From an uncultured Chloroflexia bacterium (GTDB lineage Bacteria > Chloroflexota > Dehalococcoidia > DSTF01 > JALHUB01), in NCBI GenBank assembly GCA_963703345.1, contig OY969814.1, positions 992,001 to 1,056,000 on the forward strand: DNA of 64,000 bases. Reading direction: 5' to 3'. Both the position numbers and the translations under genes were made by a program. Positions 1 through 49,026 of this stretch are shown here, one piece after another; position 1 is the first letter of the stretch, and each line of letters begins with the position of its first letter. The notes below the pieces were generated by a model that saw only the letters and a list, made by a program, of their open reading frames with translations, was not told the origin of the DNA and ran no database searches.

Positions 1-2558
1 GGTTCCTCGGCTGGGCCGCCCTTCTGAACGTAGTCGCCGTCCTCATCTTCCGTCGAAATGAGAACTCCAACACCGCCTGGTGGCTCTTTCTCGCCAGCCT
101 GATCGTCCTCGTCTTCGGCGCCGCGGTAAGCCAGAGGACGGCCGTCGAAGGGCCCGCGCACGCCGTGCCAGATCGCTTGCGGGCGGTCCGGCAGGCTGCG
201 CTTCGCCGGCTGCTTTCCTGGCGGGGAATCGAGATCGCCGCCGTGCTGGCAATCGTCGGCCTTGCTGCGTGGTTGCGCTTCCTCCGCTTCGCCTCTCTGC
301 CCGAGGGCGTCTGGTTCGACGAAGCGGATTACGGCTTGCTTGTGCGCCGCATTCTTACCGATAGCTCGTTCCGTCCCATCTACGCGCCCGAGGCCAACAT
401 GGCCAGCCCCTTCCTGTACTTCATCGCCGCGTCCTTCAAGCTGTTCGGCGATAGTATTACTAGCCTGCGCCTGGTGAGCGCCCTGGCGGGCATCGCAACC
501 GTGCCTGTGTTCTACCTCCTGGCGCGACGCTTCATGCAGATACCCGCGGCGCTAGCGGCCACTACGCTCCTCGCCGTCTCCTTCTGGCACATCAACTTCA
601 GTCGAATCGGACTGCAAGGCATCCTCACGCCGCTGGCCACCGTAATAACGTTCCTCTTTCTACTCAGAGCGTGGAGGGGCGGCAAGCTGATCGACTTCGT
701 GCTTGCGGGAGTGGCAATGAGCGCCGGCGTGTGGGCGTACAACGCCTCGAACCTGCTGCCGATTGTCGCGGCGCTGTTCCTGCTTTTCGCCGCCATTCGC
801 GAATGGCGGCTGCTCCGCTCGCGGATCCCCGGCCTCATTCTCTTCGGTTTTTCCGCTTTGATTGCGATTTCGCCGCTGGCAATGTATGCGCTCAAGCATC
901 AGGACCAGTACTTCCTCCGCAGCCGGCAGACAAGCATCTTCCTGACGCCAGCAGGAAACGGCTACGACTGGGTGCCCGAAAGCCAGTGGCTGCCGGCGCT
1001 GAAGTCGAATATCCGCGTCCATCTGCTGATGTTCAACTTCCAGGGCGATCCGAACGGTCGCCACAACCTGCCGGGTCATCGGATGCTCGACGATGTCACC
1101 GGCGTGCTGGCCGTGCTGGGGCTGGCCTACGTCATCTCTCGAGCGTTTCGCCCCGACTATTTTCTGTTGCTTGCGGGCTTTGCCGTCGGCCTGGCCGGCG
1201 GCATAATCACGCTGACCTTCGAAGCGCCGCAGTCGCTGCGCTCGATCATGGCGCTGCCCTCGGTATTTCTCTTTGCCGGCATCGCACTGAACGCCGGCTG
1301 GGAGTTCGTTACTGCCGGCCGCCGGTTCCGTCTGCCCCGTGCGTCTCTCGCAGTCGCAGCCATGGTCCCTCTCGTCCTCTGGGCGGGCGGAAGCAACTAC
1401 GACACGTTCTTCAACCTGAAAGCGAACGACTTCTCATCCTGGGCGTCCTATTCCACGGCGCCTACGCTTGTTGCCCGGGAGATAAAGCGTCTGGGGCCCG
1501 ACTACCGTTATCTGATGTCAAGCGCGTATGTGAGCCAGCCCAGTCTGGAATTCGTGGACCCGGAACTCGGCACTGGCGCGCAGATGTCTCTCGATTTGAT
1601 ACGCGATGTGCCCGTTGCTGCCGACAGGCCCACGGCCATCTTCCTCGACCCGGACAGGGACGTCTATCTTCCATGGCTTCGTACCCTCTACCCGGACGCG
1701 ACGTTCAAGACGTTTAGTTCGCCGGGAAGGACCGATCCTGCCGCCCTTTACGAGATTATCATTCCGGCCGACCAGGCGGCGAAGATTCAAGGCATCGATG
1801 TGACTTACTCCGCGCCCGGCATATCTCCCGCAGGTGCGCGTCAACCCGCCATCGATTTGGACTGGACCTCGAACACCCCGCTGCCGACGCCGTTTAACGC
1901 CGATTGGTCCGGCGTAGTCCACATCCCAGAGGGCAAGCTGTATGCCCTGACGATGCAGGCGCCCGGTCAAATACAGCTATCGCTCGACGGGCAGTTGGTA
2001 GCTCAGGGTTCGGGGCAGGTTCAGGCCACCCAATTCCTCTATAAGGGCCAGCATCGCTTGGAGGTATCGGTCCACGTCGACGCGCCCGGAAGGGTGCTGC
2101 TCTCGGCCAACGGAGCGCCGTTGCCGGAGAGCATGTACTTCGTTCCTCCAGACGCAGGCCATGGCTTGCTGGGAAGCTTCTACTCGAACGACAGTTTCCT
2201 GGGGACCGCGGTGTTCCAGGAATTGGACCCGTTCATCGGCTTCGCCTATCACGCCGAGCTGCCGTGGGCCGGTCCCCTTTCCGTCATCTGGCGGGGGAAG
2301 ATAGAAGCGCCGTCGACGGGCAAGTACTCGTTCGCGGCAGAGGCTAACGGCAAAGTGGAGGTGCGGGTCAACGGTCAATTGGTGTCGGCCAGCGGCATGT
2401 CCCCGAAGCCCGAGGTTCAGGTGCCCCTTCTGACTCAAGGACTTCACGACATTGAGATCCGCTTCTCAAGCACCGGTGGCGCCCGCGTGAAGCTATCCTG
2501 GGCCCCCCCTGACGATACGCCCGGGCTCATTGCCTCCAAGTACTTCTACCCGCCTTAG
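1..2558 (+). CDS. ArnT/PMT-like (GT-C) membrane glycosyltransferase with C-terminal PA14-like domains; 5' partial
   Basis: Frame is open from base 3 (FLGWAALLNVV...), so the gene starts before the window. WFDEA motif, many TM helices, PA14-like C-terminus (GLLGSFYSN...WRGKIEAPSTGKYSF). Confidence 0.8.
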   Translation, partial: FLGWAALLNVVAVLIFRRNENSNTAWWLFLASLIVLVFGAAVSQRTAVEGPAHAVPDRLRAVRQAALRRLLSWRGIEIAAVLAIVGLAAWLRFLRFASLPEGVWFDEADYGLLVRRILTDSSFRPIYAPEANMASPFLYFIAASFKLFGDSITSLRLVSALAGIATVPVFYLLARRFMQIPAALAATTLLAVSFWHINFSRIGLQGILTPLATVITFLFLLRAWRGGKLIDFVLAGVAMSAGVWAYNASNLLPIVAALFLLFAAIREWRLLRSRIPGLILFGFSALIAISPLAMYALKHQDQYFLRSRQTSIFLTPAGNGYDWVPESQWLPALKSNIRVHLLMFNFQGDPNGRHNLPGHRMLDDVTGVLAVLGLAYVISRAFRPDYFLLLAGFAVGLAGGIITLTFEAPQSLRSIMALPSVFLFAGIALNAGWEFVTAGRRFRLPRASLAVAAMVPLVLWAGGSNYDTFFNLKANDFSSWASYSTAPTLVAREIKRLGPDYRYLMSSAYVSQPSLEFVDPELGTGAQMSLDLIRDVPVAADRPTAIFLDPDRDVYLPWLRTLYPDATFKTFSSPGRTDPAALYEIIIPADQAAKIQGIDVTYSAPGISPAGARQPAIDLDWTSNTPLPTPFNADWSGVVHIPEGKLYALTMQAPGQIQLSLDGQLVAQGSGQVQATQFLYKGQHRLEVSVHVDAPGRVLLSANGAPLPESMYFVPPDAGHGLLGSFYSNDSFLGTAVFQELDPFIGFAYHAELPWAGPLSVIWRGKIEAPSTGKYSFAAEANGKVEVRVNGQLVSASGMSPKPEVQVPLLTQGLHDIEIRFSSTGGARVKLSWAPPDDTPGLIASKYFYPP

Positions 2559-2661
2559 CGATGCTCCCTGCGCGAGACAAAAGCTTCCGTTGCACATCGA
2601 TCGTGGTGACAACGGACGTGGAGTCGACTCCGATGACGATTGGGGGGATGTCCGCCTGCTG

Positions 2662-5600
2662 CTACGATGTCGTTCCCGACGGCATAAGCGGCGGCAGCGC
2701 GACTACCTGGTAGATCTGCACCTTGTCGTTCTTGAACACGAGGTCTAGCTCGCGACCCGCCATCGCCTGGAACTTTCCCAGCCCCTGCTTCGAATAGTAG
2801 AGCTGCTCCACCTGGCCGACGATGATGTACTTCACGTCATACTTGCGCAGGAAGGCATCGGCGGCCGCGACGCTTGTGCCGGAGTAGAAGCTCGCAACCT
2901 CTTTCTCCCGTGCCGTCACCATATCCGCGTACTGGCCGCGTTGCTGCTGCTGGTGCCATACCCAGCCGACGACAGTGGGCAGTCCAGTGTAGATCGAGAA
3001 GCGGGCGCCCCAGCGATACCCGGGCGCGACCCCTTCGACGATCACCGGTGAGCCCTGCACATTCTCCCTCATCCACTGGATGGCGTCGTAGTCGTACGAG
3101 AGGTCGATCTCGCCGTTCTGGTCAACGTAGACACTGTATTGCATGTAGTCCATGCCGTCGTTCGTCTGGCCCATGTACTGCGGGAATCGCTCCGACACGC
3201 GGGCGCGCGTGCCCGAGATGGTGTAGACGAGCCCGCCGCCTACAAGGATGACCAGGGCGACGAGCCAAGCCGCCTTCAGGAGTTCGATGCGGCTCCACCA
3301 GCTGCTGCTGCTGCCTGACGGCTTCAGCGGACGCCAATCGAGGACGGCGAAGACGTACCAGACGCCATAGGCGCCGGCGAGCGCCAGCAGGAGCCAGACG
3401 TGGATGTAGAACTTAAACACCGTGTTCATGCGCTCGATGTCGCCGTCGAGCGTGATGATATCGACCATCGCGCTCAGCGCCAGCGCCACGGCGATCATCA
3501 CAAGGAGGAAGAGCCGCAGCGGCGCATCCGGGCGACTCCCCCGTAGCTCGCGCCAGGCGAGGAGCGCCAGCAGGGCGATCACCGCCAGCGAGAAGGCCAC
3601 CACCGGTATGCCGTTGGAAAACAGGTCACCCAGGAAGTCACCGGCGTTCAGCCCCTTGAACGTGATCGGCAGGTGCTTGCTCTCGCCGCTCAACGCCATC
3701 GCCACGCAAACGACCAGCAGCAGACCGACAAGCGTCCCAAGGTAGAGCAGCACTTTCCATCCCGGCCGACGTCGGAAGAAGCGCCAGCCCAGCGCCACCA
3801 CGAGTGTCGCAGCGGCGAATAGCAGTGTGCCGAATTGCGCGAGGTACTGGCTGAAGGGCGTCGTCCTGTCCACCTGGTTCAGAGAGGCAGCGTGGAACCC
3901 CTTGTAGAAGAGGTGGTAGTTCTGCCAGAAGGGGAAGAAGAAGACGATCGATAGCACCACCAGTACGGCGGACTTCGCCAGCGCCGTTCGCGTCGCCGCC
4001 CAACTGAGGCGCCCCTCGTTGGCGCGCTCCGCGATGAAGATGATGAGAACGCTGATGAGAAGGAAGGGCGGATAGTCCCAGGAGTTGATCGGCCGCAGCG
4101 CTCCGACCAGCAGGCCCAGCAGCGCTACACCCAACCAGCTCGTCAGGCTGCGGAGGCGCCCGTTCGGCAGCTCCTTGCGGTCCCCAAGCACCAGCGACAG
4201 CCCAACGCCCACTATCACGACATCGAACGGTATCGCCATCACGTGAGCGTGCAGGTCGGCGAAGAGGAAGCTGAAGAACGGGAACTCCGTGATGGCCGAC
4301 ATCAGCGGCGGCATCCGAGTGAGGTCAAAGTAGTTGAAGGGCGCCAAATGCACGCCGCCGACGAATGTCGCCTTCCAGAACCCGCCCACCATTCCGACGA
4401 AGCCGCTGATCAAGGGGACTCCCTCTCCGGCATGCCAATCGCTCACCTTGGAGAGATTGTCCGCTGTGTGGTAGACGCCGCGCAGGTTGCCGATCACGGC
4501 GACGAGCACGATGGCCAGGATACCCGCCGCCACCGGTCCATTGCCTCCGATACGCTTGAAGCCGGGCCGCCAGCGGACGCGCTTCCGCGTCGCCTCCGCT
4601 AGGTTGTAGACAACGGAGAAGGCGGCGCCGACCGTCATCGCGAAGAAGAGCGGCACCGCCAGGTTGAAGGCGATTTCCGGCAGAATGCCCGTCAGCTTGA
4701 TAAGCGTCGCCGTCATGAACTGGCCGAAGTAGTAGTAGTTCATGTAGCCGCCGGCGAACCAGGGGTCGTAGGGCGGCATCGTCGTGCTGCGGGTTACTGC
4801 GTTGAGGTACGCCAGTTCCATCGGCTTCTCGCCGCCGCGGGAGGGGTGCCACAGGTCCGGGTCGAGAGTGCGTATCCAGTAGAACGCGAGGAAAGCCGCA
4901 ATGAAGAGCGTTTCGTACAACAGGATGCGTCGCCAGTGCTCGCGGACGAACGCCAGCAGGTCGCTGCGCGTCAGCCGCGCGACGATGGCGCCGACGACGA
5001 TGAGCACGACGAGCATGGCGAAGATGCTCCCGCTGGTGAAATGGAAGAGCTTGACGCTTGCGCCCAACCATACCAGCCACGAGACCGCGAGCAGGCCGAG
5101 CGGCTTGGCCAGCAAGTAACCCCTGTCCGGCAGCGCGCGGAAGAGGAACAGGCCGAGCGGCAGCACCGCCAGCGACATGACTTCGATGGCGAGCAGCCAG
5201 GTCACGACCGGGAATCGATTGCTCAAGCTCGTCGCATTGAAGATGGACGTCCAGGTGCCGCCGGAGCGCTGCGTCGTGCAGTCGCCCGGCCGAAGCAGCA
5301 GCGCGTTCTGGGCGGCATCCGCCGGCACGAGCTGCGACACTGAATCCTCCTCGCATGCGGCCGACTCCACCGAAGCCATGAACGCCTCCGGCGTGTAGTC
5401 GGCGGTCTTCTGATAGAGGAGCACTTTGGGATGGTCGTAGACCGTGAAGTTGCCTTCGGCTGAGTCGTCGTTGATCGTGATGCCGAAGAGCGACGGGTAG
5501 GAGGTGAACGTTCGCACCAGCGTGAAGCCGGCAAGCTTGTTATCGAGGAGGAGCCTGTAGAAGGCGCTCGTAAGCGGCCACTTCGCCGGCGCCCGCGGTA

Positions 5601-24599: not shown

Positions 24600-24676
24600 C
24601 GGGGTGTAGCGCAGCCCGGTAGCGCACCTGAATGGGGTTCAGGAGGTCGTGGGTTCGAATCCCACCGCCCCGACCA
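24600..24676 (+). tRNA. tRNA-Pro(GGG), intact; integration site
   Basis: Cloverleaf with CGGGGTG/CGCCCCG acceptor, CCTGA/TCAGG anticodon stem with GGG, GTTCGAATC T-loop, encoded CCA. Confidence 0.97.
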
Positions 24677-24717
24677 GTTTCCCTACAAACTGGCACAGAA
24701 CAGCCCATTATCGGGGT

Positions 24718-24750
24718 GGAAACCCGCCGAAAAGGCGGGTTTCCTGCTTT
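24718..24750 (+). terminator. Terminator downstream of tRNA-Pro
   Basis: GGAAACCCGCC-GAAAA-GGCGGGTTTCC followed by TGCTTTT. Confidence 0.7.
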
Positions 24751-24921
24751 TCTGGGGCGTTTTGGGGGCTCTCACCCATCCATCGTAAACGCCCCAGATG
24801 CGCGCGGTGAGCCGGTTACGGTACCTGAAACGGTGTTCTATTTTGCAACAGTCTTAGGGCATTCAGGCGAACAGCGATTTTGACAGGGCGGCAATTAACG
24901 GTGATCTGGGAGGAAGCTAGC

Positions 24922-26013
24922 ATGAAGATGAGAAAACGAAACCCAAGGTGGCAGGACATGGACAAGAAGAACACCCCGTTCAACCGCCTGATCGACGACT
25001 TCCTGCTGGCCAAACGCTCGGCCGGCTGCTCGGAGAAGACGGTCTCCTGGTACCGCGACAACATCCTGAGCTATGTGCGCTTTCTCGAGGGCGAGGGCAA
25101 CCCGGCCGTGCTGAAGAGCTTCTCAGCCGACAGCGTGCGCCGCTACACGGTCCACCTGCAGGGACGTAGGGTGAAGTTCGAAAACAATCCCCTGCGGCGG
25201 ACGGTCGGCGAGGCGCTGTCCAGCCAGACCGTCTTCGGCTACGTCGCCACCCTCGGCGTCTTCGCCACCTGGCTGGCTGCCGAGGGCTACACGCGTAGCA
25301 ATCTCCTGCAGGGGGTACCGCGGCCGCGGAAACGGAAGACGGCGGTCAGCGGTCTCAGCCGGGAGGAGATCGAGAGCCTTCTGGCCCGGGTTCCCAAGCA
25401 TACGCTGGTCGGTACCCGTGACCGGGCGATCCTGATAACCCTCCTGGACTGCGGCCTCCGCGCCTCCGAGCTCTGCGACCTGACGCTGAACGAGGCCCAC
25501 ATCGAGGGGGGCTACCTGAAGGTGCTGGGCAAGGGGAACAAGGAGCGGATAGTGCCGGTCGGCGCCGCCGCCTGCCGGGCGATCCTCCGCTACCGTGACT
25601 TCTTTCGCCGGGATCAGGGCAAGCCGGCGCCCAACCTCTTTCTGTCCGTTCACGGCGGCAGATTGAGCCCGGAGGCGCTCCGTCTAATGGTGCAGAGATG
25701 GGCCAAGTCGGCGGGAATCAAAGGTGCGACCGTGCACAAGCTCCGTCACACCTTCGCCCTCCAGTACCTGATGGCCGGCGGCGATGCCTTCAGCCTGCAG
25801 AAGATCCTCGGCCATACGACGATGGACATGACGCGGAACTACGTCAACATACTGCCGGCGCAGCTCGTGGAGAAGCACCGCCTTCACTCGCCGATGGACC
25901 GGATGACGATCGGCTTTCCCTCGACAAAGGGGCGAACGGACGGCAGGGACGAGTGTGGGCGTTTCGCGTCCTCCCTCCCCCGTCGCCGTAGCAGCGGTCG
26001 CGGTCGCGGATGA
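24922..26013 (+). CDS. Tyrosine recombinase/integrase
   Basis: GLRASE, GKGNKER, HKLRHT, LGH and RNY catalytic motifs; GGAGGA RBS. The last codons run into an IS remnant. Confidence 0.9.
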   Translation: MKMRKRNPRWQDMDKKNTPFNRLIDDFLLAKRSAGCSEKTVSWYRDNILSYVRFLEGEGNPAVLKSFSADSVRRYTVHLQGRRVKFENNPLRRTVGEALSSQTVFGYVATLGVFATWLAAEGYTRSNLLQGVPRPRKRKTAVSGLSREEIESLLARVPKHTLVGTRDRAILITLLDCGLRASELCDLTLNEAHIEGGYLKVLGKGNKERIVPVGAAACRAILRYRDFFRRDQGKPAPNLFLSVHGGRLSPEALRLMVQRWAKSAGIKGATVHKLRHTFALQYLMAGGDAFSLQKILGHTTMDMTRNYVNILPAQLVEKHRLHSPMDRMTIGFPSTKGRTDGRDECGRFASSLPRRRSSGRGRG

Positions 26014-32757: not shown

Positions 32758-33144
32758 TCACCAAGGCCACCACCGTCGAACAAGGCCCGGCGGCGACGGC
32801 GCGTGTGGCGGTGACACATGGCCCGGCGGCGACACCTGGCCCGGTGCCGACACTTGGCCCGGCGATGACACATGGCCCGGCGGTGACACTTGGCCCGGCG
32901 GTGACACTTGGCCCGGCGATGACACATGGCCCGGCGGCGACAGATGGCCCGGCGGCGACACTTGGCCCGGCGATGACACATGGCCCGGCGGCGACACATG
33001 ACCCATCTGAGCTGCTGCGTTCCCCGTGGGCCCATTTAAGGAGGGCACGATTATCGCCATTGCCACCGTGCCAACCAGTGCCGCGAGGACGAGCGCAACC
33101 ACCACGAGGAGCCTAGCTGGGATCCGAAAAGCGGATAACTTCAT
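32758..33144 (-). CDS. Small exported protein with 11 G(H/Q)VS(P/S)P repeats
   Basis: N-terminal hydrophobic helix, repeat tract, RRWWPW end; same strand as and just upstream of the ligase-like gene. Confidence 0.7.
   Translation of the reverse strand: MKLSAFRIPARLLVVVALVLAALVGTVAMAIIVPSLNGPTGNAAAQMGHVSPPGHVSSPGQVSPPGHLSPPGHVSSPGQVSPPGQVSPPGHVSSPGQVSAPGQVSPPGHVSPPHAPSPPGLVRRWWPW
32807..33003. repeat. 18-bp tandem repeat, about 11 copies
   Basis: Unit approximately GACAC(A/T)TGGCCCGGCG(G/A)(T/C). Confidence 0.95.
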
Positions 33145-36572: not shown

Positions 36573-36806
36573 GGCTGCAGCCATCGCCGTCTTGAGACTC
36601 AAGCGGGAACCAGAAAGCCTTGACCGACCGCGACCGGCACGTCACAATAGCGCTGCCTGGCGTCGCGCCGTATCAGCTACGAGCTGAGCAGCGGAAGATT
36701 CAGGAGAGACACTCGGCCTAGCCAGATTCTGCACCTGAATCTTCTCCAAGGACGGCCGCCGGCAGATTCGGAATCGGCGCTTTCGGCTGGATTCCCGACC
36801 TGATTG

Positions 36807-36894
36807 ATGGGGTTCAGGAGGTCGTGGGTTCGAATCCCACCGCCCCGACCAGTTTCCCTACAAACTGGCACAGAACAGCCCATCATCGGGGTGG
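36807..36894 (+). repeat. tRNA-Pro 3' half plus 43 bp (att repeat 2)
   Basis: Matches 24632-24719 at 87 of 88 positions. Confidence 0.95.
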
Positions 36895-42294: not shown

Positions 42295-42508
42295 CCGGAA
42301 TCAGCTGCCGCACGCATCTTCTTGACTGGCAGCAGCCAGCACGCCACAATAGCGCTGCCTGGCGCCGCGCCGTATCAGCTACGAGCTGAGCAGCGGAAGA
42401 TTCAGGAGAAACACTCGGCCTGGTCAGATTCTCCGCCTGAATCTTCTCCAATGGCGGCCGCTGGCAGATTCGGGATCGGCGCTTTCGGCGGGATTCCCGC
42501 CCTCAATG

Positions 42509-42553
42509 ATGGGGTTCAGGAGGTCGTGGGTTCGAATCCCACCGCCCCGACCA
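42509..42553 (+). repeat. tRNA-Pro 3' half (att repeat 3)
   Basis: 45 bp identical to 24632-24676. Confidence 0.95.
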
Positions 42554-42998
42554 GAATGAAATCAGAGGGTCGCTTTCGAAGCTGGAGAAAAGGCAGCGCG
42601 GCTCTTTTTAGGTGGACGCACCAACGCCTAACGAGTGGGTTCAGGAGGTCGGTCTGGCAAAGGCGACCTCCTGAATGGTATCGGACCAGATCACATTACG
42701 TCACACCTGCTCACAGCTTGTCTCGCGCCTGAACACCAGAGAAGCGCGATAAGGTGTCAGGCGATAGTAAGAGTTGCTACTTGCCCACCCTCATCCGCCC
42801 CTGCAGTTGACCTCGGTTGTCTCTCTGGCCTCGGTGGGTCGCTTGTGTGGTGGCCCTCTTCTTGTCGCAGTCCTCCAACGAGGACTAGCCCATTTCCACC
42901 TCAGGGGGCAAACCCGGCGCCTCCCCCACCGGGGTGACACGAACCGCTTTACGTCTCAAGCGGCCGAGAGATAGGCTGGCGATTGCTTATCAAGAGAG

Positions 42999-44663
42999 AT
43001 GATGGACACCTCAGGCACACAGTCGCAGTGCGCCGCCCGGTACTACCTTGTGAGCGAACAGAGAACGAGCCTCAGAAACCACAGAGGCCTCCTGCGCCTT
43101 CGAGGGCGAGGCCGCCTGCTGTCGTTGCTCGAGATGCCGGCCATCCTCACCCGACTGAACGTCGCGCCCGATGGACGCTTCGTTCCCGAGATGCAGGATT
43201 GGGAGTCTTTCTGGGCACCGGCGCATGAGCTAGCCAACCCGCAGATCGATCACGTCCTGGAGAGGCTTCACGCTTCCTGGCAGGACTACATCCGATCTCG
43301 CTTCGACCGATCGCTGCAGCGGGAGTACTGCCTCTGGTACTTCTCCCTCCTGGATCTCATCTTGGCGACGCCCGTTGGCCGGCGGGATTCCCTCCCCTGG
43401 CAGCGGGCGCTACGGGCCGTCGTGGGCTTCGAGTGTTTCGGCATAAGGGCACCAGCCCTCGGCGCGGAGGCTCTGGCTGCGGGCACGATGACCCTTCGCA
43501 ACCCCTGTTACGTCCTTGCCAAGCTCAGATGGCCGGACGCCTTGGACGATACCCAGTTCCTTCCCCTCATCGGCCCACCACACGGCAAGCCTGCCAGCCT
43601 CTACTACCACTACCGGCAGTACCGGCTCTCAAAGGATTCACCTATGTCGCTTCTTCTGTATGTGGCGGCCGCTCCCACGCATCGCTTGACGAGCTTCAGA
43701 CTCGTTGAGTCGTTGGCGCGGGGCGTCAGTTCAGGCGGCGATCCTCGCACTGGGCAGCGGGCGCGACGCCTGTGGGAGAAGGTTCTCAGGCCGATCGTCC
43801 AAACTGCCCGCACCGATGCAACGACAGCAATGCCCGTTGAGTTAGTTGACGTCGGCGCGGGCAGTGGCGCCCTGACCGCTGCTCTCTGCCATAGGCTCCT
43901 GGCCTGGGGCGTGGCAAACGGACTCTTGCCTCGGCTTCGCGTATGGTTTGTGGACTTGTGCCTCTCCGACCCGGCGCGGTTCTTTCGGGCCGCTGGCCTG
44001 AGAAACCGCATCGACAGTCTGACGTTCCTGGGCGACGACTATCGCCGTTGGCTGGCGCGGCCGGGGCCGCTGCCCGAATCCTCAGGTATTCGAGTGGCGC
44101 TAATCTCGAAGCTCTTCAACAACTTGAGCCGTTTCTCAGTTTGCCGTTGTCGCACAGATGTGCTATCCTCCTCGTCAACTGGCACACCGTTCATCGACGG
44201 GCGAAGGCACCTGCCGTCTTTCTGTTTGGCGCCCGACGGTGCGGGTCCGGAGGCTCTCGTGATCTCCACTTCACGCCTTGGCTTGGCTGAGGGCCGGACC
44301 TTTGCCCAAGCCTCACTCTCAGACTACTACCGTGCGCTCCAGCTGGCGCTCGCGGACGGCAAAGAGGAGGAGGTATCGGAGGACGGAGCCTGGCTGCCAC
44401 TGAGGGCCCTCGATCCTGGATGCCTCATCGCCGCCGACGGGACGAGTGTACTCGCGCGGCTCTTGGAGCACTGCGACTACCTCATCGTTGAGGACGCCGA
44501 TCTGAGGCCGAAGGACATCGTCAAACACCTGCGAGCGTTCTCGCTGGATGGGCTGGCCGCCCTTGACATGACCAAGACGCTGGGCCTCATCGGGAACCAC
44601 GCATACCTACTCTCAAGCAAGGGTGAAAAGAAGACTTCACTACCGGGGGAGCGAATATGGTAG
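42999..44663 (+). CDS. Uncharacterised protein with a class I SAM-dependent methyltransferase-like motif
   Basis: ELVDVGAGSG motif I and later VWFVD; N-terminal half unrecognised. Confidence 0.55.
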   Translation: MMDTSGTQSQCAARYYLVSEQRTSLRNHRGLLRLRGRGRLLSLLEMPAILTRLNVAPDGRFVPEMQDWESFWAPAHELANPQIDHVLERLHASWQDYIRSRFDRSLQREYCLWYFSLLDLILATPVGRRDSLPWQRALRAVVGFECFGIRAPALGAEALAAGTMTLRNPCYVLAKLRWPDALDDTQFLPLIGPPHGKPASLYYHYRQYRLSKDSPMSLLLYVAAAPTHRLTSFRLVESLARGVSSGGDPRTGQRARRLWEKVLRPIVQTARTDATTAMPVELVDVGAGSGALTAALCHRLLAWGVANGLLPRLRVWFVDLCLSDPARFFRAAGLRNRIDSLTFLGDDYRRWLARPGPLPESSGIRVALISKLFNNLSRFSVCRCRTDVLSSSSTGTPFIDGRRHLPSFCLAPDGAGPEALVISTSRLGLAEGRTFAQASLSDYYRALQLALADGKEEEVSEDGAWLPLRALDPGCLIAADGTSVLARLLEHCDYLIVEDADLRPKDIVKHLRAFSLDGLAALDMTKTLGLIGNHAYLLSSKGEKKTSLPGERIW

Positions 44664-45628
44664 ACGTCATCAGGGCGGGCCGCAGGTCGGCGGTCCTGAC
44701 GCCGTCCGACCTCCCTTGCCTCTCGACGATCCCAACCATCAACCTCACCGCCGGCTGTCTCCACGGCTGCGCCTACTGCTACATCCGCGGCTACAGCACG
44801 TTCCCCGGCGAGGGTCGGGTGGTCCTGTACGAGAACACGCTGGAGAAGCTCCAGCATGAACTTGTGCGACGGCGGGCGAAACCGCGTGCGGTCTACTTCA
44901 GCCCCTCCAGCGACCCCTTCCAGCCAGCACCGGAGGTTCTCGAGCTCGCCCGGGCGGTGCTTGCGTTTCTGCTCAGGGAGGGGATCGGCGTTGCCTTCTT
45001 GACCAAGGGCCGCATTCCCGACAATATAATGCGGCTTCTCGTCGAGCACGCCGAGTTGGTGCGGGCCCAGGTCGGCATCACCACCTTGGACGACGCTGTC
45101 TCGCGGGCGTTCGAGCCCAACTCCGCCAGCCCCGAACAACGCCTGGCGCAGATGCAGGCGCTCATCGCCGCCAACGTGCCGACGGAGGCGCGGCTCGACC
45201 CTGTCCTGCCGGGTCTGACGGACGACCCGCGGTCGATGGATCGCCTCTTCGCCGCCCTGACCCGGATCGGCGTCAGGCGGGCGGCGGCGAGCGTGCTCTT
45301 CCTCAGACCGGCCATCGTGCAATCTCTTCGATGGAACGTGCCCGACAAGGAGATGCTGGCGCGGCTCCTCAGCGCCTACCAGGGGAGCGAGCGTATAGGG
45401 CTCCGCGGCACCGGATCACACGTCCAGACGCTGCCGTCCGCGGTCAGAGGCGAACTCTTCGCGCGGATGCGGGAGATAGCGTTGGCGCACAGCATCGAGT
45501 TGAGTATCTGCGCCTGCAAGAACCCTGACCTGGCGAGCGGCTCCTGCAATATCGCCGGCAGATGGCCCAAGCAGGAGGCCTGGTCCGTTCAGCCTGTCCT
45601 TGCAGGTGAGTTTGCCAGCAGGCAGTGA
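44657..45628 (+). CDS. Radical SAM protein, spore-photoproduct-lyase-like family
   Basis: GCLHGCAYCY, SDPFQP, FLTKG, FEP, C-terminal CACKN; overlaps the upstream gene. Confidence 0.85.
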   Translation: MVDVIRAGRRSAVLTPSDLPCLSTIPTINLTAGCLHGCAYCYIRGYSTFPGEGRVVLYENTLEKLQHELVRRRAKPRAVYFSPSSDPFQPAPEVLELARAVLAFLLREGIGVAFLTKGRIPDNIMRLLVEHAELVRAQVGITTLDDAVSRAFEPNSASPEQRLAQMQALIAANVPTEARLDPVLPGLTDDPRSMDRLFAALTRIGVRRAAASVLFLRPAIVQSLRWNVPDKEMLARLLSAYQGSERIGLRGTGSHVQTLPSAVRGELFARMREIALAHSIELSICACKNPDLASGSCNIAGRWPKQEAWSVQPVLAGEFASRQ

Positions 45629-45640
45629 AAAGGTGAACGC

Positions 45641-46274
45641 ATGCTTCAGGATATCCCTATTGATAGCCTTGTCGCCCATCCTGACAACAGCAACCACATG
45701 AGCACCGAGATGCTCAAGAAGCTGCGTCGGCATATCGAACGGACGGGAAGATACGAGCCGCTGACTGTCCGCCCGCACCCGAGCGCGGAGGACAAGTATG
45801 AGGTTCTCAACGGTCACAACCGGCTGCGCGTCCTTCGGGCTATCGGACGAAACTCGGCGTGCTGTGTCGTGTGGGATGTCGACGACTCCCAGGCCAGGCT
45901 CTATCTCGCCACACTCAACCGCCTCGCCGGCAGCGATACTCCGGAACGGCGGGCGGCTCTTCTGGAGAACCTTCTAGGCACCTTCGATATGACGGAGCTT
46001 TTGGGGGTTGCTCCCTGATAGTCAACGCCAAATCGAGGAGCTCCAGCGGCTGTCACGCCTGGACACAGAAGAACTCATCTCTTCCGGCATGACTGACAGA
46101 GACGAATCTGGCGTGCCCGTTATCCTAGACTTCGTTCTGGAGGAGTCCGAGGCCAAGGAAGTGAACCTCGCCCTGGACATGGTCCGAGCCCCTGAAGGAC
46201 AGAGCATCTCCAGCGGCCAGGCGCTTGTCCGGCTCGCACGCTTCTATCTCGCTGGCTGCAAGCCAAGCTGCTGA
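45641..46274 (+). pseudogene. ParB/Sulfiredoxin N-domain protein split by a frameshift
   Basis: HPDNSN, EPLTVR, YEVLNGHNR. Dropping one G from G5 at 46003-46007 joins it to LLPDSQRQIEEL. Confidence 0.75.
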
Positions 46275-46317
46275 GAGTAGGCCGCCGCTCCATGCTCCCA
46301 ATCTGAGGCAGGCTTCT

Positions 46318-46716
46318 ATGGGGAACGACCACTTTTCAGAGCTGCTGCGGCACTTCAAGCGGAGTGAGGCTCCCGAGGCCGTCCTCCTCGTAGCCGACGA
46401 CCCAACGCTTACCAAGATCGTCGTGGCATGGAACAATCTTGACCTACGGCCGGGCAAGAAGCCTAGGCGATCCCCCGGAGAGTCGGAGCATGACCAGTGG
46501 GACTGGCTCTGGGCCAACGTCAGCTATTCCCTCGAGGACTTGGCCGAGAGAAGCGGTCTCACTGTCGCTCTCATCGAGCGGAAGCTTAAGCCGCTCATCG
46601 GGAACCGCATTCTGTATCCCGACGGTTCTGTGAACTCGTTCGTGCAGCGGTATCTGCGGGAACGGGTACTCAAGCTGTTCGATGCGAAACCGAGGAAGCC
46701 GGCCAAAACCGGTTGA
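46318..46716 (+). CDS. Hypothetical protein, possible winged HTH
   Basis: 132 aa; SLEDLAERSGLTVALIERKLKPL resembles an HTH. Confidence 0.6.
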   Translation: MGNDHFSELLRHFKRSEAPEAVLLVADDPTLTKIVVAWNNLDLRPGKKPRRSPGESEHDQWDWLWANVSYSLEDLAERSGLTVALIERKLKPLIGNRILYPDGSVNSFVQRYLRERVLKLFDAKPRKPAKTG

Positions 46717-46968: not shown

Positions 46969-47015
46969 TTGCATGTCATCGGAATGTCAAATATAGTTTG
47001 ACCTATGAGTGACAT
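46969..47015 (+). promoter_or_regulatory. Promoter with overlapping inverted-repeat operator for the abiE pair
   Basis: TTGCAT-N17-TATAGT. TGTCA/TGAC half-sites flank the -10. ATG is 7 nt after the -10 (leaderless). Confidence 0.6.
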
Positions 47016-47643
47016 CAATGCCGCATCGCGCACCCGCCGACCTGCTTCCCAACCGGATCGCGCCCGACTCTTCGATATCGCTTCAGAGCAGGGTGGCTAC
47101 TTCACGGCTGAGCAAGCCCGGGTTTCTGGTTTTAGCCGATCACTTGTCTCGCATCACGTGAAGAGCGGCCGGTTCATCAGAGTACGTCGGGGACTGTATC
47201 GCTTTCGTGAGTATCCGGCGTCGCCGCGTGAGCACGTGCTCGCCGCGTGGCTCGCAGTAGGGAAGGACGTAGCCGTCGTCTCGCACGAAAGCGCACTTGA
47301 CCTGCTCGACCTCAGCGACGTGATACCGGATGCGGTACACCTTACTGTTCCTCGGTCGCGGCGCAACGTCCTCACGCTCCCCGGTGTGAAGGTCCACACC
47401 ACTGCTCGATCACCAAGGTCGGAAGACGTTGTCGTGCGCGATGGTATGGCCATCACCTCGGCCACGCGCAGCATCCTCGACGCAGCCGAGATGGGGACAG
47501 CACCGGAGCAGCTTGAGATGGCTGTCATTCAGGCGATTGAGCGCGGCCTGGCCACCCCGCGACAACTGCGGCAGGATGCCGTAGCGCGCGGACGGCGAGT
47601 GGCAACACTGATCGAGGAAGCGCTTCGCAGGTTTCGGCAATGA
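47005..47643 (+). CDS. Type IV TA antitoxin, AbiEi family
   Basis: ASEQGGYFT, RVRRGLYR, VSHESAL. Confidence 0.85.
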   Translation: MSDINAASRTRRPASQPDRARLFDIASEQGGYFTAEQARVSGFSRSLVSHHVKSGRFIRVRRGLYRFREYPASPREHVLAAWLAVGKDVAVVSHESALDLLDLSDVIPDAVHLTVPRSRRNVLTLPGVKVHTTARSPRSEDVVVRDGMAITSATRSILDAAEMGTAPEQLEMAVIQAIERGLATPRQLRQDAVARGRRVATLIEEALRRFRQ

Positions 47644-48524
47644 AATACGCCACTCCCGGCGCATTCCGTAGGGCTCTCGAACAGTGACTCCTGACGATGG
47701 CCAGGGAGACAGATGTCCCACTGATGCGGCTGCGCAAGCTCGTTGTCTTCGACCGCTTGATGGCGCGCCTGGTGGTCGTGGCTCCGAACCGCTGGGTCGT
47801 CAAGGGTGCGGCGGCCCTCCTCTTTCGCCTGGGAGCCAGGTCTCGCACCACGAAAGACCTCGATCTCGGGCGCCAAGATAACGAGGAGGCGGCAACGGCC
47901 GACTTTCTTGCAGCACAGTCGCTCGATCTTGGTGACCACTTCACGTTTGCCATCGAGCGCACGAAGAAGCTGGACGCGATGCTGGAAGGTGTCGCGGTGC
48001 GGTACCACGTTGTCGCAGAGTTCGGCGGGCGCGTGTTTGAGGACGTGACGGTCGACGTCGGCTTCGGGGATCCCGTCGTCGCTGATCCAGAGCTCGTGCG
48101 CGGACCAGATCTACGGAGCTTCGCGGATATCCCTCCCGCCGAAGTGCCGGCGTTGCCTCTGGAACAGCATGTCGCCGAGAAGATTCATGCCTACACCCGG
48201 AGCTACGTCGGCGGCCGCCCGAGCACCCGTGTCAAGGACCTTCTCGACCTCGCCATGATGGGGTCGCTCTTCAGCTTCCAGGCTGGCCGCCTGCGGCGAG
48301 CCCTTGAGGCCACGTTTGCTGCTCGTGATACCCATCTGCTGCCATCTGTGCTTCCTGCGCCACCGCCCCAGTGGGGTGTTGCGTACCGAAGGACGGCTAC
48401 CGAGGTCGGTTTGGACTCTGACATGTCGATGGGGTACGAGCAGGCGGCGGCGTTTCTCAATCCGATCTTGGCGGGGACAACTCCATCTGATGCCCGATGG
48501 GATCCCGTGCAGCGTACCTGGTAG
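47640..48524 (+). pseudogene. AbiEii-family nucleotidyltransferase toxin with an early in-frame TGA
   Basis: ATGA-coupled start MKYATPGAFRRALEQ*LLTMAR with TGA at 47685-47687; KGAAAL, RTTKDLD, AEKIHA, STRVKDL. Confidence 0.8.
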
Positions 48525-48804: not shown

Positions 48805-48849
48805 ATGGGGTTCAGGAGGTCGTGGGTTCGAATCCCACCGCCCCGACCA
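48805..48849 (+). repeat. tRNA-Pro 3' half (att repeat 4)
   Basis: 45 bp identical to 24632-24676, followed by a terminator hairpin at 48864-48905. Confidence 0.95.
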
Positions 48850-49026
48850 GAATGAAATCAGGAGGTCGGTTTCGAGGCTAACAGCCCGCGAAACCGACCG
48901 TTTTTGCGTTCCTCCAAGGCCGCCTGTAATCAGGAGGTCGCTTCCACAAGCAGGCAGCCTCCGGAGGATCGTCTCACCACATCACACCGCGTCACACCTG
49001 CTCACAACCCGTCACAGGGCGCCCCG

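Follow-up and report, generated by a model that had tools for sequence, protein, structure and literature searches.

SplB-like radical SAM genes belong to SOS regulons across many phyla, and what these enzymes act on outside spores is the question addressed by a four-gene cassette (G1–G4) in the 64,000-nucleotide stretch of DNA analyzed here (the window). In this cassette the radical SAM enzyme comes with a constant methyltransferase-fold partner and a predicted clamp tether, and there are two natural states, one with a LexA box and QxxLF motif and one without either; these features make the substrate question testable in a compact 3.7-kb operon. The answer would either explain how bacteria of anaerobic sediments deal with DNA damage in the absence of oxygen or reveal a new DNA modification. 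An earlier reading of the window (the sequence-only reading) had held that the parts of the operon point to DNA, which the analysis bore out.

Layout and conservation of the cassette

Four co-oriented, tightly spaced genes are present as first described (Table 1), and the G1 and G2 reading frames overlap by 7 nt. The unit around them is att-bounded, as had also been proposed. It lies between 75-nt repeats with 95% identity, and the first 46 nt of each repeat equal the 3′ end of an intact tRNA-Pro(GGG) elsewhere in the window. The repeat flank also stands 3′ of the intact tRNA-Pro in three related loci (L005, L029 and L030), where the cassette is located directly behind the tRNA. No integrase was found among the ORFs of the repeat-bounded unit; the intact tRNA-Pro(GGG) and the integrase-like ORF beside it anchor a tandem island array.

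Table 1. Positions of the cassette genes and associated features in the window
Feature	Positions	Strand	Remarks
Intact tRNA-Pro(GGG)	24600-24676	+	With integrase ORF, spans 24600-26013
Tyrosine integrase-like ORF beside intact tRNA-Pro	24880-26013	+	Label from translation
Left att-like repeat, tRNA-Pro(GGG) 3′ 46 nt plus flank	42509-42583	+	
Predicted promoter of G1	42934-42977	+	GTGACA, 8 nt, -35-like TTTACG, 18 nt, -10-like TAGGCT
G1, orphan protein, ~200-aa N-terminal region plus predicted class-I SAM-dependent methyltransferase fold	42999-44663	+	Start alternatives 43002 or GTG 43050
G2, SplB-like radical SAM enzyme	44657-45628	+	Nearest models PA0069/Rv2578c, sub-cut-off
Degenerate clamp-binding motif, C-terminus of G2	45590-45604	+	Q and L retained, F lost
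G3, ParB-like, ~210 aa: ParB_N, degenerate helix-turn-helix region, short C-terminal domain	45641-46274	+	Frame broken
G4, 132-aa orphan, invariant tryptophans, basic tail, possibly winged-helix	46318-46716	+	
AbiEi-AbiEii type IV toxin-antitoxin pair	47005-48524	+	Pfam, PADLOC
Right att-like repeat, tRNA-Pro 3′ end plus flank	48805-48879	+	

The cassette genes co-occur elsewhere. G2 follows G1 in 88/93 related loci, G3 follows G2 in 47/62 and G4 follows G3 in 34/37, which is far beyond chance; roughly one locus in four lacks G3 and G4. G1–G4 form a genuine conserved cassette that moves from one bacterium to another as a small, tRNA-adjacent island. The G1 family has 399 representatives at 50% identity, and G4 has 1355 relatives. 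The cassette has a sparse, patchy distribution (G4 is present in 13 of 401 same-class genomes), which sets it apart from core repair genes. No G1 relatives were found in the viral contigs, phages and plasmids searched, no G4 relatives in the viral contigs or plasmids searched, and PHROGs returned nothing for either protein. A quick version of the tree was used, and rows shorter than 400 aa (L072) were left out. The dN/dS ratio was 0.07–0.32 in 29 of 30 comparisons, with the remaining value of 0.63 at a dS of 0.03. These ratios rule out a pseudogene or decay, and they indicate that the clade of the window copy is under purifying selection despite the absence of the LexA box and of the phenylalanine in the clamp motif.

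A literature search outside subscription journals and bioRxiv supplements retrieved no description of the gene set. PADLOC-DB 2.0 gave only weak, unrelated matches to G1–G4 (E 0.054; 2e-6 for the ParB part; 0.027), none of them convincing. By these searches the four-gene operon is undescribed and matches no named system, in agreement with the sequence-only reading, and its G1 and G4 represent two protein families that Pfam does not model.

The AbiE pair is an ordinary member of its type IV toxin-antitoxin family (Pfam 2.7e-12 and 8.6e-27; PADLOC e-62 and e-79 for AbiEi and AbiEii). It had been placed beside the operon in one unit, where it is indeed present, but it is not conserved beside the cassette in relatives. 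The AbiE proteins of the window matched 1 of 103 loci (L031; 31%, opposite strand), which rules out AbiE as a fifth component. Pfam added one AbiEii locus (L062), the sole case among the 24 loci where 1.2 kb or more of sequence follows G4. Judged from these comparisons, the pair is a passenger in the island unit, outside the conserved cassette.

Neighboring genes bear on the proposal of an anti-phage system that chemically attacks or tags foreign DNA. This would apply to the window's clade at least, whose loss of LexA control would make the system constitutive. By hand count, toxin-antitoxin or defense-like genes (AbiE, PIN, nucleotidyltransferase, OLD plus UvrD, and TIR) lie within ~2.5 kb of ~9/22 window-clade loci, the window included, compared to ~2/21 loci in the sister clade, and the island location is consistent with such a role. 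However, the counted loci include near-copies, the neighbors vary from locus to locus, and tRNA islands collect such genes anyway. No effector domain (nuclease, NADase or membrane pore) was detected, and PADLOC offers no system that G1–G4 would fit. An anti-phage function is quite unlikely, and it is the least supported of the three originally proposed (DNA modification, repair or anti-phage) because the AbiE link is incidental.

Predicted properties of the four proteins

G1 has no Pfam match, and its structure model (pLDDT 84) was used for fold comparison. Model residues ~206–543 matched many class-I enzymes with VIA Z scores of 11–13.6. The top matches included the arginine methyltransferase MidA (Z 13.6, rmsd 3.3, 203 aligned), histamine and O-methyltransferases, and METTL16, all within ~1.5 Z; MidA is tied with other class-I enzymes, and such tied matches reflect the shared fold only. 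The DxGxGSG motif is conserved, with D284, G286, G288 and G290 retained in 67 distant rows and D319 in the close set. Class I SAM-dependent methyltransferases have a seven-stranded Rossmann-like core, a glycine-rich motif I and, past strand 2, an acidic residue. On these features G1 is assigned a predicted fold of this class, and the methyltransferase-like label given earlier holds. The N-terminal ~200 residues had no match in whole-protein searches, from which no claim of a new fold follows. A G1–G2 complex prediction scored 0.00 and was counted neither for nor against.

By fold, G1 is nearest to methyltransferases of proteins and small molecules rather than to nucleic-acid enzymes. This favors a scheme in which the enzymes act on protein, RNA, nucleotide or a small molecule in the SOS response, for example with a protein of the replisome or of repair as the methylation target of G1. 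Such a scheme is very unlikely, given that the fold matches are tied, that the closest solved relative of G2 is spore photoproduct (SP) lyase, and that DNA is the target indicated by G3 and the clamp motif.

N6-adenine and N4-cytosine DNA methyltransferases have the catalytic motif IV (D/N/S)PP(Y/F), and C5-cytosine DNA methyltransferases have a catalytic Pro-Cys after strand 4. The (D/N/S)PP(Y/F) motif is not conserved in the G1 alignments, where the segment after strand 4 is S-K-L-F-N-N-L-S. There was no N6_N4_Mtase or D12 Pfam match in G1, the PADLOC MTase_II match reached only E 0.054, and the methyltransferase domain has no invariant Cys over 67 rows that could form a Pro-Cys motif.

PF04055 matched G2 with 55 bits (cut-off 29.5), and the three cysteines of its CxxxCxxC motif (C34, C38 and C41) are invariant. 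These sequence features assign G2 to the radical SAM superfamily. Four extra cysteines (C21, C285, C287 and C297) are invariant in 20/20 aligned proteins. The best NCBIfam matches were 108.5 of 360 bits (PA0069, NF033668) and 90 of 430 bits (Rv2578c, NF038135), and by these scores G2 is a relative, not a member, of the two families. They and G2 lie on a common radical SAM branch, and the cassette has predicted LexA control in most relatives. G2 differs in being far under the family cut-offs, in its four additional invariant cysteines and in belonging to a mobile cassette that couples it to orphan methyltransferase-fold, ParB-like and orphan partner genes.

The closest solved relative of G2 is SP lyase (SplB, PDB 4FHC; profile E 0.0013–0.003), and the SPL-like radical SAM assignment of the sequence-only reading is upheld. 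G2 retains the CxxxCxxC and two flanking tyrosines of SP lyase. It differs in the absence of a sporulation context and in its additional partners, and it scored 22.5 of 400 bits against TIGR04070 and 16.2 of 27 against Pfam SPL. The cysteine in the SP lyase segment FEAACTSD is the hydrogen donor. It aligns with Ser/Pro in G2 (F-S-P-S-S-D), and only a few G2 relatives have a Cys near this position. Because G2 lacks this cysteine, its substrate is proposed to differ from that of SP lyase.

The G3 gene is broken in the window by one surplus base in a T/G run at 45998–46007. In each of the 46 related loci with both halves, these lie in one frame, which is free of stops in 45, and a contig from run X1, otherwise identical over 372 nt, does not have the surplus base. 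The frameshift is therefore likely an assembly error. A five-gene reading with a ParB-N gene and a separate 88-aa ORF was ruled out in favor of a single frameshifted gene. ParB_N was found in 30/30 G3 members, which confirms the predicted ParB-N gene, and G58 and R61 of the GxxR P-motif are invariant; these two features identify G3 as a predicted ParB-CTPase fold protein. G3 aligns to Noc over profile positions 3–155, with the Glu of Noc ENLQR aligned to a Leu. The accessible text of bioRxiv 2025.10.10.680097 describes the nucleotide specificity of ParB-like proteins as not predictable from sequence. The parA gene expected of ParABS was found neither in the unit nor among 142 neighbors scanned. 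A ribbon-helix-helix pattern suggested for the C-terminal 55 residues of G3 has no Pfam support.

G4 had been called HTH-like. Atlas matches to winged-helix clusters (0.81–0.84, under the tool's reliable range) weakly favor this label, but G4 has no Pfam or PDB match and its structure model has a pLDDT of 53.

LexA boxes and the clamp motif

A LexA box, AGAAC-N4-GTTCT, was derived from Dehalococcoidia genomes, where it is carried by 29/30 lexA promoters with at most 2 mismatches (1.9 expected). The box (at most 1 mismatch) was present 5′ of G1 in 20/39 lineages compared to 0.22 expected, mostly just behind the -10 hexamer, and matrix scores in the sister clade were 11.7–20.2 in 21/22. Because the lineages with a box belong to a single clade, their 20 boxes do not count as independent gains. 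The lexA gene itself (TIGR00498, 177 bits, above cut-off) ends 28 nt before G1 in one Planctomycetota locus (L167), and in another (L168) it is parted from G1 by an IS-like insert. Host-type boxes and lexA operons place the cassette family in the predicted LexA regulon. The E. coli-type LexA box was not enriched. SplB-like radical SAM genes are reported as SOS members in the available portions of PMC3323433, PMC7739468 and PMC3765255, and a LexA ChIP peak at Rv2578c/Rv2579 in that of PMC3381160.

The window's G1 promoter had a LexA matrix score of 2.2, which is background (shuffle 95th percentile 6.9), and the highest-scoring site anywhere in the unit (9.7) lies within G1. The window's clade lacks the box in 14/14 rows by the 1-mismatch rule, and 13/14 are at background by matrix. 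The window copy thus scores as outside the LexA regulon at its G1 promoter. The element upstream of G1 is a putative promoter, and its exact GTGACA was found in 20/40 upstream regions compared to 1.5 expected.

The beta-clamp-binding consensus was applied as given in the available text of PMC12309361. A strict QxxLF-type C-terminal tail is present in 29/47 G2 lineages (null 0.001 per sequence window) and in 0/12 lineages closest to the window copy. This tail is a putative sliding-clamp tether in the relatives that carry it. Read by eye, 10/11 partner SPL-family enzymes also have a clamp motif, which lies N-terminally.

Proposed damage processing and DNA modification

The damage-switch and clamp-tether marks in most relatives suggest that the cassette acts on damaged DNA. 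Our preferred reading, held tentatively at a little short of even confidence, is an SOS-induced, sliding-clamp-tethered module that processes damaged DNA. Repair or damage processing is the part of the original three-way proposal that is best supported, by the LexA boxes, lexA operons and clamp motif. Additional SPL-family genes, which lie inside or beside the cassette in L010, L038, L055, L092, L124 and L167, fit this reading as well. DNA damage would relieve LexA repression of the operon, and G2 would dock on the beta clamp where forks have stalled or repair gaps exist. G2 would then form the 5′-deoxyadenosyl radical and take hydrogen from a damaged or modified base in the manner of SP lyase, on another substrate. 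G1, whose N-terminal region may recognize the substrate, would bind SAM and move a methyl or other SAM-derived group onto the lesion or the G2 product. G3 may be a nucleotide-binding accessory that provides access to duplex DNA, like the ParB partners of phage thymine dioxygenases, which activate the enzyme on dsDNA (available text of PMC13229309), and G4 may bind DNA and serve G2 as an adaptor.

The window's clade lacks both the box and the strict clamp motif, so the SOS reading rests on relatives; without the box and the motif Phe, the window copy would be active irrespective of DNA damage. Genes of mobile elements and conflict genes are likewise under SOS control, so such control is no proof of repair. 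The imuA-imuB-dnaE2 SOS mutagenesis cassette is mobile, LexA-boxed, often beside lexA, and has a clamp-binding subunit. G1–G4 differ from it in having no polymerase or RecA-like gene, and no sequence relation was detected.

Post-replicative DNA modification is a somewhat doubtful alternative. G1 would methylate a base or add a SAM group, and G2 would convert the product to a hypermodified base by radical chemistry; the clamp motif would couple the reaction to new DNA, SOS would time it to stress or element excision, and the window's clade would be constitutive. Modification stays a candidate because a sister cassette has a ParB_N-N6/N4 DNA methyltransferase fusion in place of G1 and G3, followed by an SPL-family enzyme and G4 (L055, L126, L128, L132 and L133). 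The near-obligate pairing of G1 and G2 also fits, as do the enrichment of ParB-methyltransferase fusions in prophages and the ParB activation of phage thymine dioxygenases described in the accessible parts of bioRxiv 2025.10.10.680097 and PMC13229309, respectively. Against modification, G1 has neither catalytic motif, no recurrent nuclease partner was found among the 142 neighbors scanned, and relatives of G1 and G4 are absent from the viral and plasmid sequences searched, and those of G1 from the phages.

The sister cassette and the G1–G4 cassette have G4 and LexA boxes in common, both occur at tRNA sites, and in both the radical SAM enzyme carries a clamp motif; parts have been swapped between the two. 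The sister cassette differs in having a recognizable DNA amino-methyltransferase fused to ParB_N and a radical SAM enzyme of another subfamily with ~25% identity to G2. The ParB-dependent phage thymine dioxygenases (5mYOX plus ParB) are similar in that a small ParB homologue is accessory to a co-encoded DNA-base enzyme. They are phage systems with oxygen-dependent Fe/2OG chemistry and without radical SAM, and LexA control is unreported in the available text of PMC13229309.

An unlikely extension is a DNA chemistry new to science, oxygen-independent and clamp-coupled, in which the orphan G1-family methyltransferase and G2 would act sequentially on a DNA base with a ParB-like loader. The window's clade, freed from LexA and the replisome, would be a constitutive DNA-marking or anti-phage system, with an SOS repair module turning into a conflict system.

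Gene content and predicted proteins

The sequence-only reading proposed a co-oriented operon, and G1, G2, G3 and G4 were all found at 42999-46716, with the ParB_N ORF and the 88-aa ORF merging into G3. These two ORFs are one gene; the G3 halves share a single frame in 46/46 related loci containing both. A contig from sequencing run X1 has one base fewer in the run at 45998-46007 and is otherwise identical over 372 nt. The shared frame and this contig make an assembly error the likely source of the extra base in the window's G3, although the error is not proven because the X1 contig has a depth of 2.6 and X1 may derive from another sample.

Coordinates of the cassette and of flanking features in the window
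Feature	Position	Length	Remark
tRNA-Pro(GGG)	24600-24676
Tandem island array	24600-48879		at tRNA-Pro(GGG)
Hexapeptide-repeat ORF	32758-33144	128 aa
Direct repeat	36619-36852 and 42321-42554	234 nt	91% identical
tRNA-Pro(GGG) 3' copies	36807, 42509, 48805	46 nt
Further tRNA fragments	34457, 36524, 42258, 49019
Short repeats	42557-42700 and 48853-48990		behind both att copies
GTGACA element	42934-42939		8 nt upstream of -35
G1	42999-44663	554 aa
G2	44657-45628	323 aa
ParB_N ORF	45641-46018		first part of G3
88-aa ORF	46008-46274	88 aa	second part of G3; start overlaps end of ParB_N ORF
G4	46318-46716	132 aa
AbiEi/AbiEii pair	47005-48524

G1 had no match in Pfam or PHROG. Its predicted model (pLDDT 84) matches class-I SAM methyltransferases across residues ~206-543, and the best structural match (Z = 13.6, rmsd 3.3, 203 aligned) is tied among protein, RNA and small-molecule enzymes. 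A non-DNA substrate is a quite improbable alternative. Over 67 distant rows, five residues do not vary (W68, W72, D284, R469 and D499) and motif I is retained, which suggests that the SAM site is active. G1 lacks the catalytic motifs of N6/N4 and C5 DNA methyltransferases. G2 is a radical SAM enzyme whose nearest models, PA0069 and Rv2578c, score under the cut-off. Its closest solved relative is SP lyase; G2 has Ser/Pro at the position of the SPL cysteine and four additional invariant cysteines. The alignment of G3 to ParB/Noc runs through the helix-turn-helix region, with GxxR retained and Leu replacing the ENxxR glutamate. G4 has 1355 relatives; it had no PDB hit, and its predicted model reached a pLDDT of 53.

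Distribution, LexA boxes and clamp motifs

Searches gave 169 G1 relatives among 7992 scored candidates, and the family has 399 representatives at 50% identity. The loci compared were 23 from genomes and the best 80 of 87 from metagenomes. Most of the named hosts belong to Dehalococcoidia or to Chloroflexota outside that class; single bins carry the labels Gemmatimonadota, Bacillota, Fibrobacterota and Planctomycetota. The genes co-occur elsewhere: where flank was sufficient, and counting near-copies, G2 follows G1 in 88/93 loci, G3 follows G2 in 47/62 and G4 follows G3 in 34/37. The cassette is rare, with G4 in 13/401 same-class genomes and strong G1 matches in 6/401 Planctomycetota genomes. 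dN/dS was 0.07-0.32 in 29/30 comparisons.

Neighbour genes vary between loci (142 neighbours scanned), and AbiE, the pair next to the window's cassette, is not conserved among them. Defence-like neighbours include an OLD-TOPRIM + UvrD pair (L007:670-4301), an S8 peptidase + AAA pair (L101:1165-4676), an AEP-TOTE helicase (L016:5323-8064) and a TIR protein (L077:302-982). A PADLOC search of G1-G4 gave no matching system, in keeping with the initial failure to recognise a named one, and an anti-phage role is improbable. No description of the cassette was found in the open-access text searched.

The host-type LexA box was derived from lexA promoters, taking the best 30 loci found in 51/61 class genomes with lexA. 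AGAAC-N4-GTTCT occurs with ≤2 mismatches in 29/30 of these promoters (1.9 expected) and with ≤1 in 22/30 (0.14 expected). With lineages defined by 80% identity clusters, 20/39 have the box upstream of G1, against an expectation of 0.22, mostly directly behind a -10 hexamer. Independently of the boxes, two Planctomycetota loci have lexA itself ahead of G1-G2-G3. By eye, related locus L168 carries an IS-like insert with inverted ends between lexA and G1 (2370-3745).

A C-terminal QxxLF-type motif is present in G2 of 29/47 lineages, and the partner SPL enzyme begins with one in 10/11. On the host contig (G000:C1 ~1413240, minus strand), a 435-aa ORF that presumably resembles the exonuclease VII large subunit ends in a QxxLF motif, which suggests clamp binding. 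QxxLF is the general clamp-binding consensus (excerpt of PMC12309361), and SplB-like genes are reported within SOS regulons (excerpts of PMC3323433, PMC7739468, PMC3381160 and PMC3765255). The locus is of a known kind, the SOS-linked SplB-like radical SAM locus; what is new is a variant of such a locus and two unclassified protein families.

Our preferred though tentative reading is a damage-induced, clamp-tethered module that processes damaged DNA, with chemical steps that we infer. G2 would act on a damaged base through a radical reaction, the lesion or the G2 product would receive a SAM-derived group from G1, and G3 and G4 would provide access to duplex DNA. A ParB activator of phage thymine dioxygenases is a precedent for the proposed G3 role (PMC13229309).

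Modular variants

G4 is also the last gene of a sister cassette consisting of a ParB_N-N6/N4 methyltransferase, an SPL-family enzyme and G4. The DNA methyltransferase in this arrangement favours the main rival, post-replicative DNA modification, which we consider rather unlikely. Gene orders among related loci include G1-G2-G3-SPL-G4 (L092), G2-SPL-G4 (L124), SPL-G4 (L123), the two cassettes in tandem (L055) and the G1-G2 pair alone. The constant element is the SplB-like radical SAM enzyme. At L024:11519-12427, L101:11544-12470, L023:12309-13331 and L050:403-1287, another PA0069-like radical SAM enzyme (~25-30% identity) replaces or joins G2; by this similarity, G1 pairs with more than one radical SAM subfamily.

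The sister cassette was seen at L055:5381-8241, L126, L128, L132 and L133, its SPL-family enzyme carrying an N-terminal clamp motif; the L126 methyltransferase has an internal deletion. The host genome encodes two more ParB_N-DNA methyltransferase-like genes (G000:C1 1898555-1899751 and 2263225-2264415).

The window's clade and its tRNA-Pro island

In a quick G1 tree (42 rows, midpoint root), the window belongs to a 14-row clade without the box (SH-aLRT 94; 95 omitting locus L090), and 19/21 members of the sister clade are boxed. The LexA matrix score is 2.2 at the window's G1 promoter; 13/14 clade members fall below the shuffle 95th percentile (locus L009 scores 8.5), and 21/22 in the sister clade score 11.7-20.2. 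The strict clamp motif occurs in 0/12 G2 lineages nearest the window versus 29/35 of the remainder. The host LexA code is unchanged, because the host's own lexA promoter is boxed and, at L038, where G1-G2 is unboxed, the SPL gene downstream of the pair retains box and motif. Planctomycete outgroups have lexA linkage (2/6) and the strict motif (6/6), so loss within the window's clade would be the simpler reading on a midpoint root.

The promoter appears to be retained in this clade, including GTGACA, which is found in both cassette clades and exactly in 20/40 upstream regions (1.5 expected). The element may serve SOS-linked promoters as an activator site or as an extension of the promoter. In the host genome, a LexA box lies downstream of 3/7 GTGACA-N8-TTG sites (background 0.8%; G000:C1 620912, 622611 and 646907, minus strand). 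Toxin-antitoxin or defence-like neighbours look commoner in the window's clade (~9/22 loci versus 2/21 in the sister, a hand count of non-independent loci).

The window's three displaced repeats copy the 3' end of tRNA-Pro(GGG). An integrase-like ORF directly follows this tRNA; none was found within the cassette unit. At L005, L029 and L030 the cassette sits immediately behind an intact tRNA-Pro with the flank seen in the window, so later insertions likely pushed the window's cassette away. Same-genus genomes also hold multiple copies of the tRNA-Pro(GGG) end, in similar arrays. Other loci place the cassette near different tRNAs or tmRNA, and a T-arm pattern lies nearby in 16/42 loci with enough flank (~10% expected).

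A fourth 3' copy is inverted at G000:C1 1096369-1096421, and many further tRNA fragments lie in the array. The 234-nt repeat ends in the att copy and brackets the unit at positions 36.8-42.5 kb, which has two genes resembling acyl-CoA dehydratase activase proteins, as labelled from translations. The short repeats are TTCAGGAGGTCG-like words that may be integrase arm-type sites. The 128-aa ORF has a signal-like N-terminus and ~ten tandem GHVSPP/GQVSPP hexapeptide repeats.
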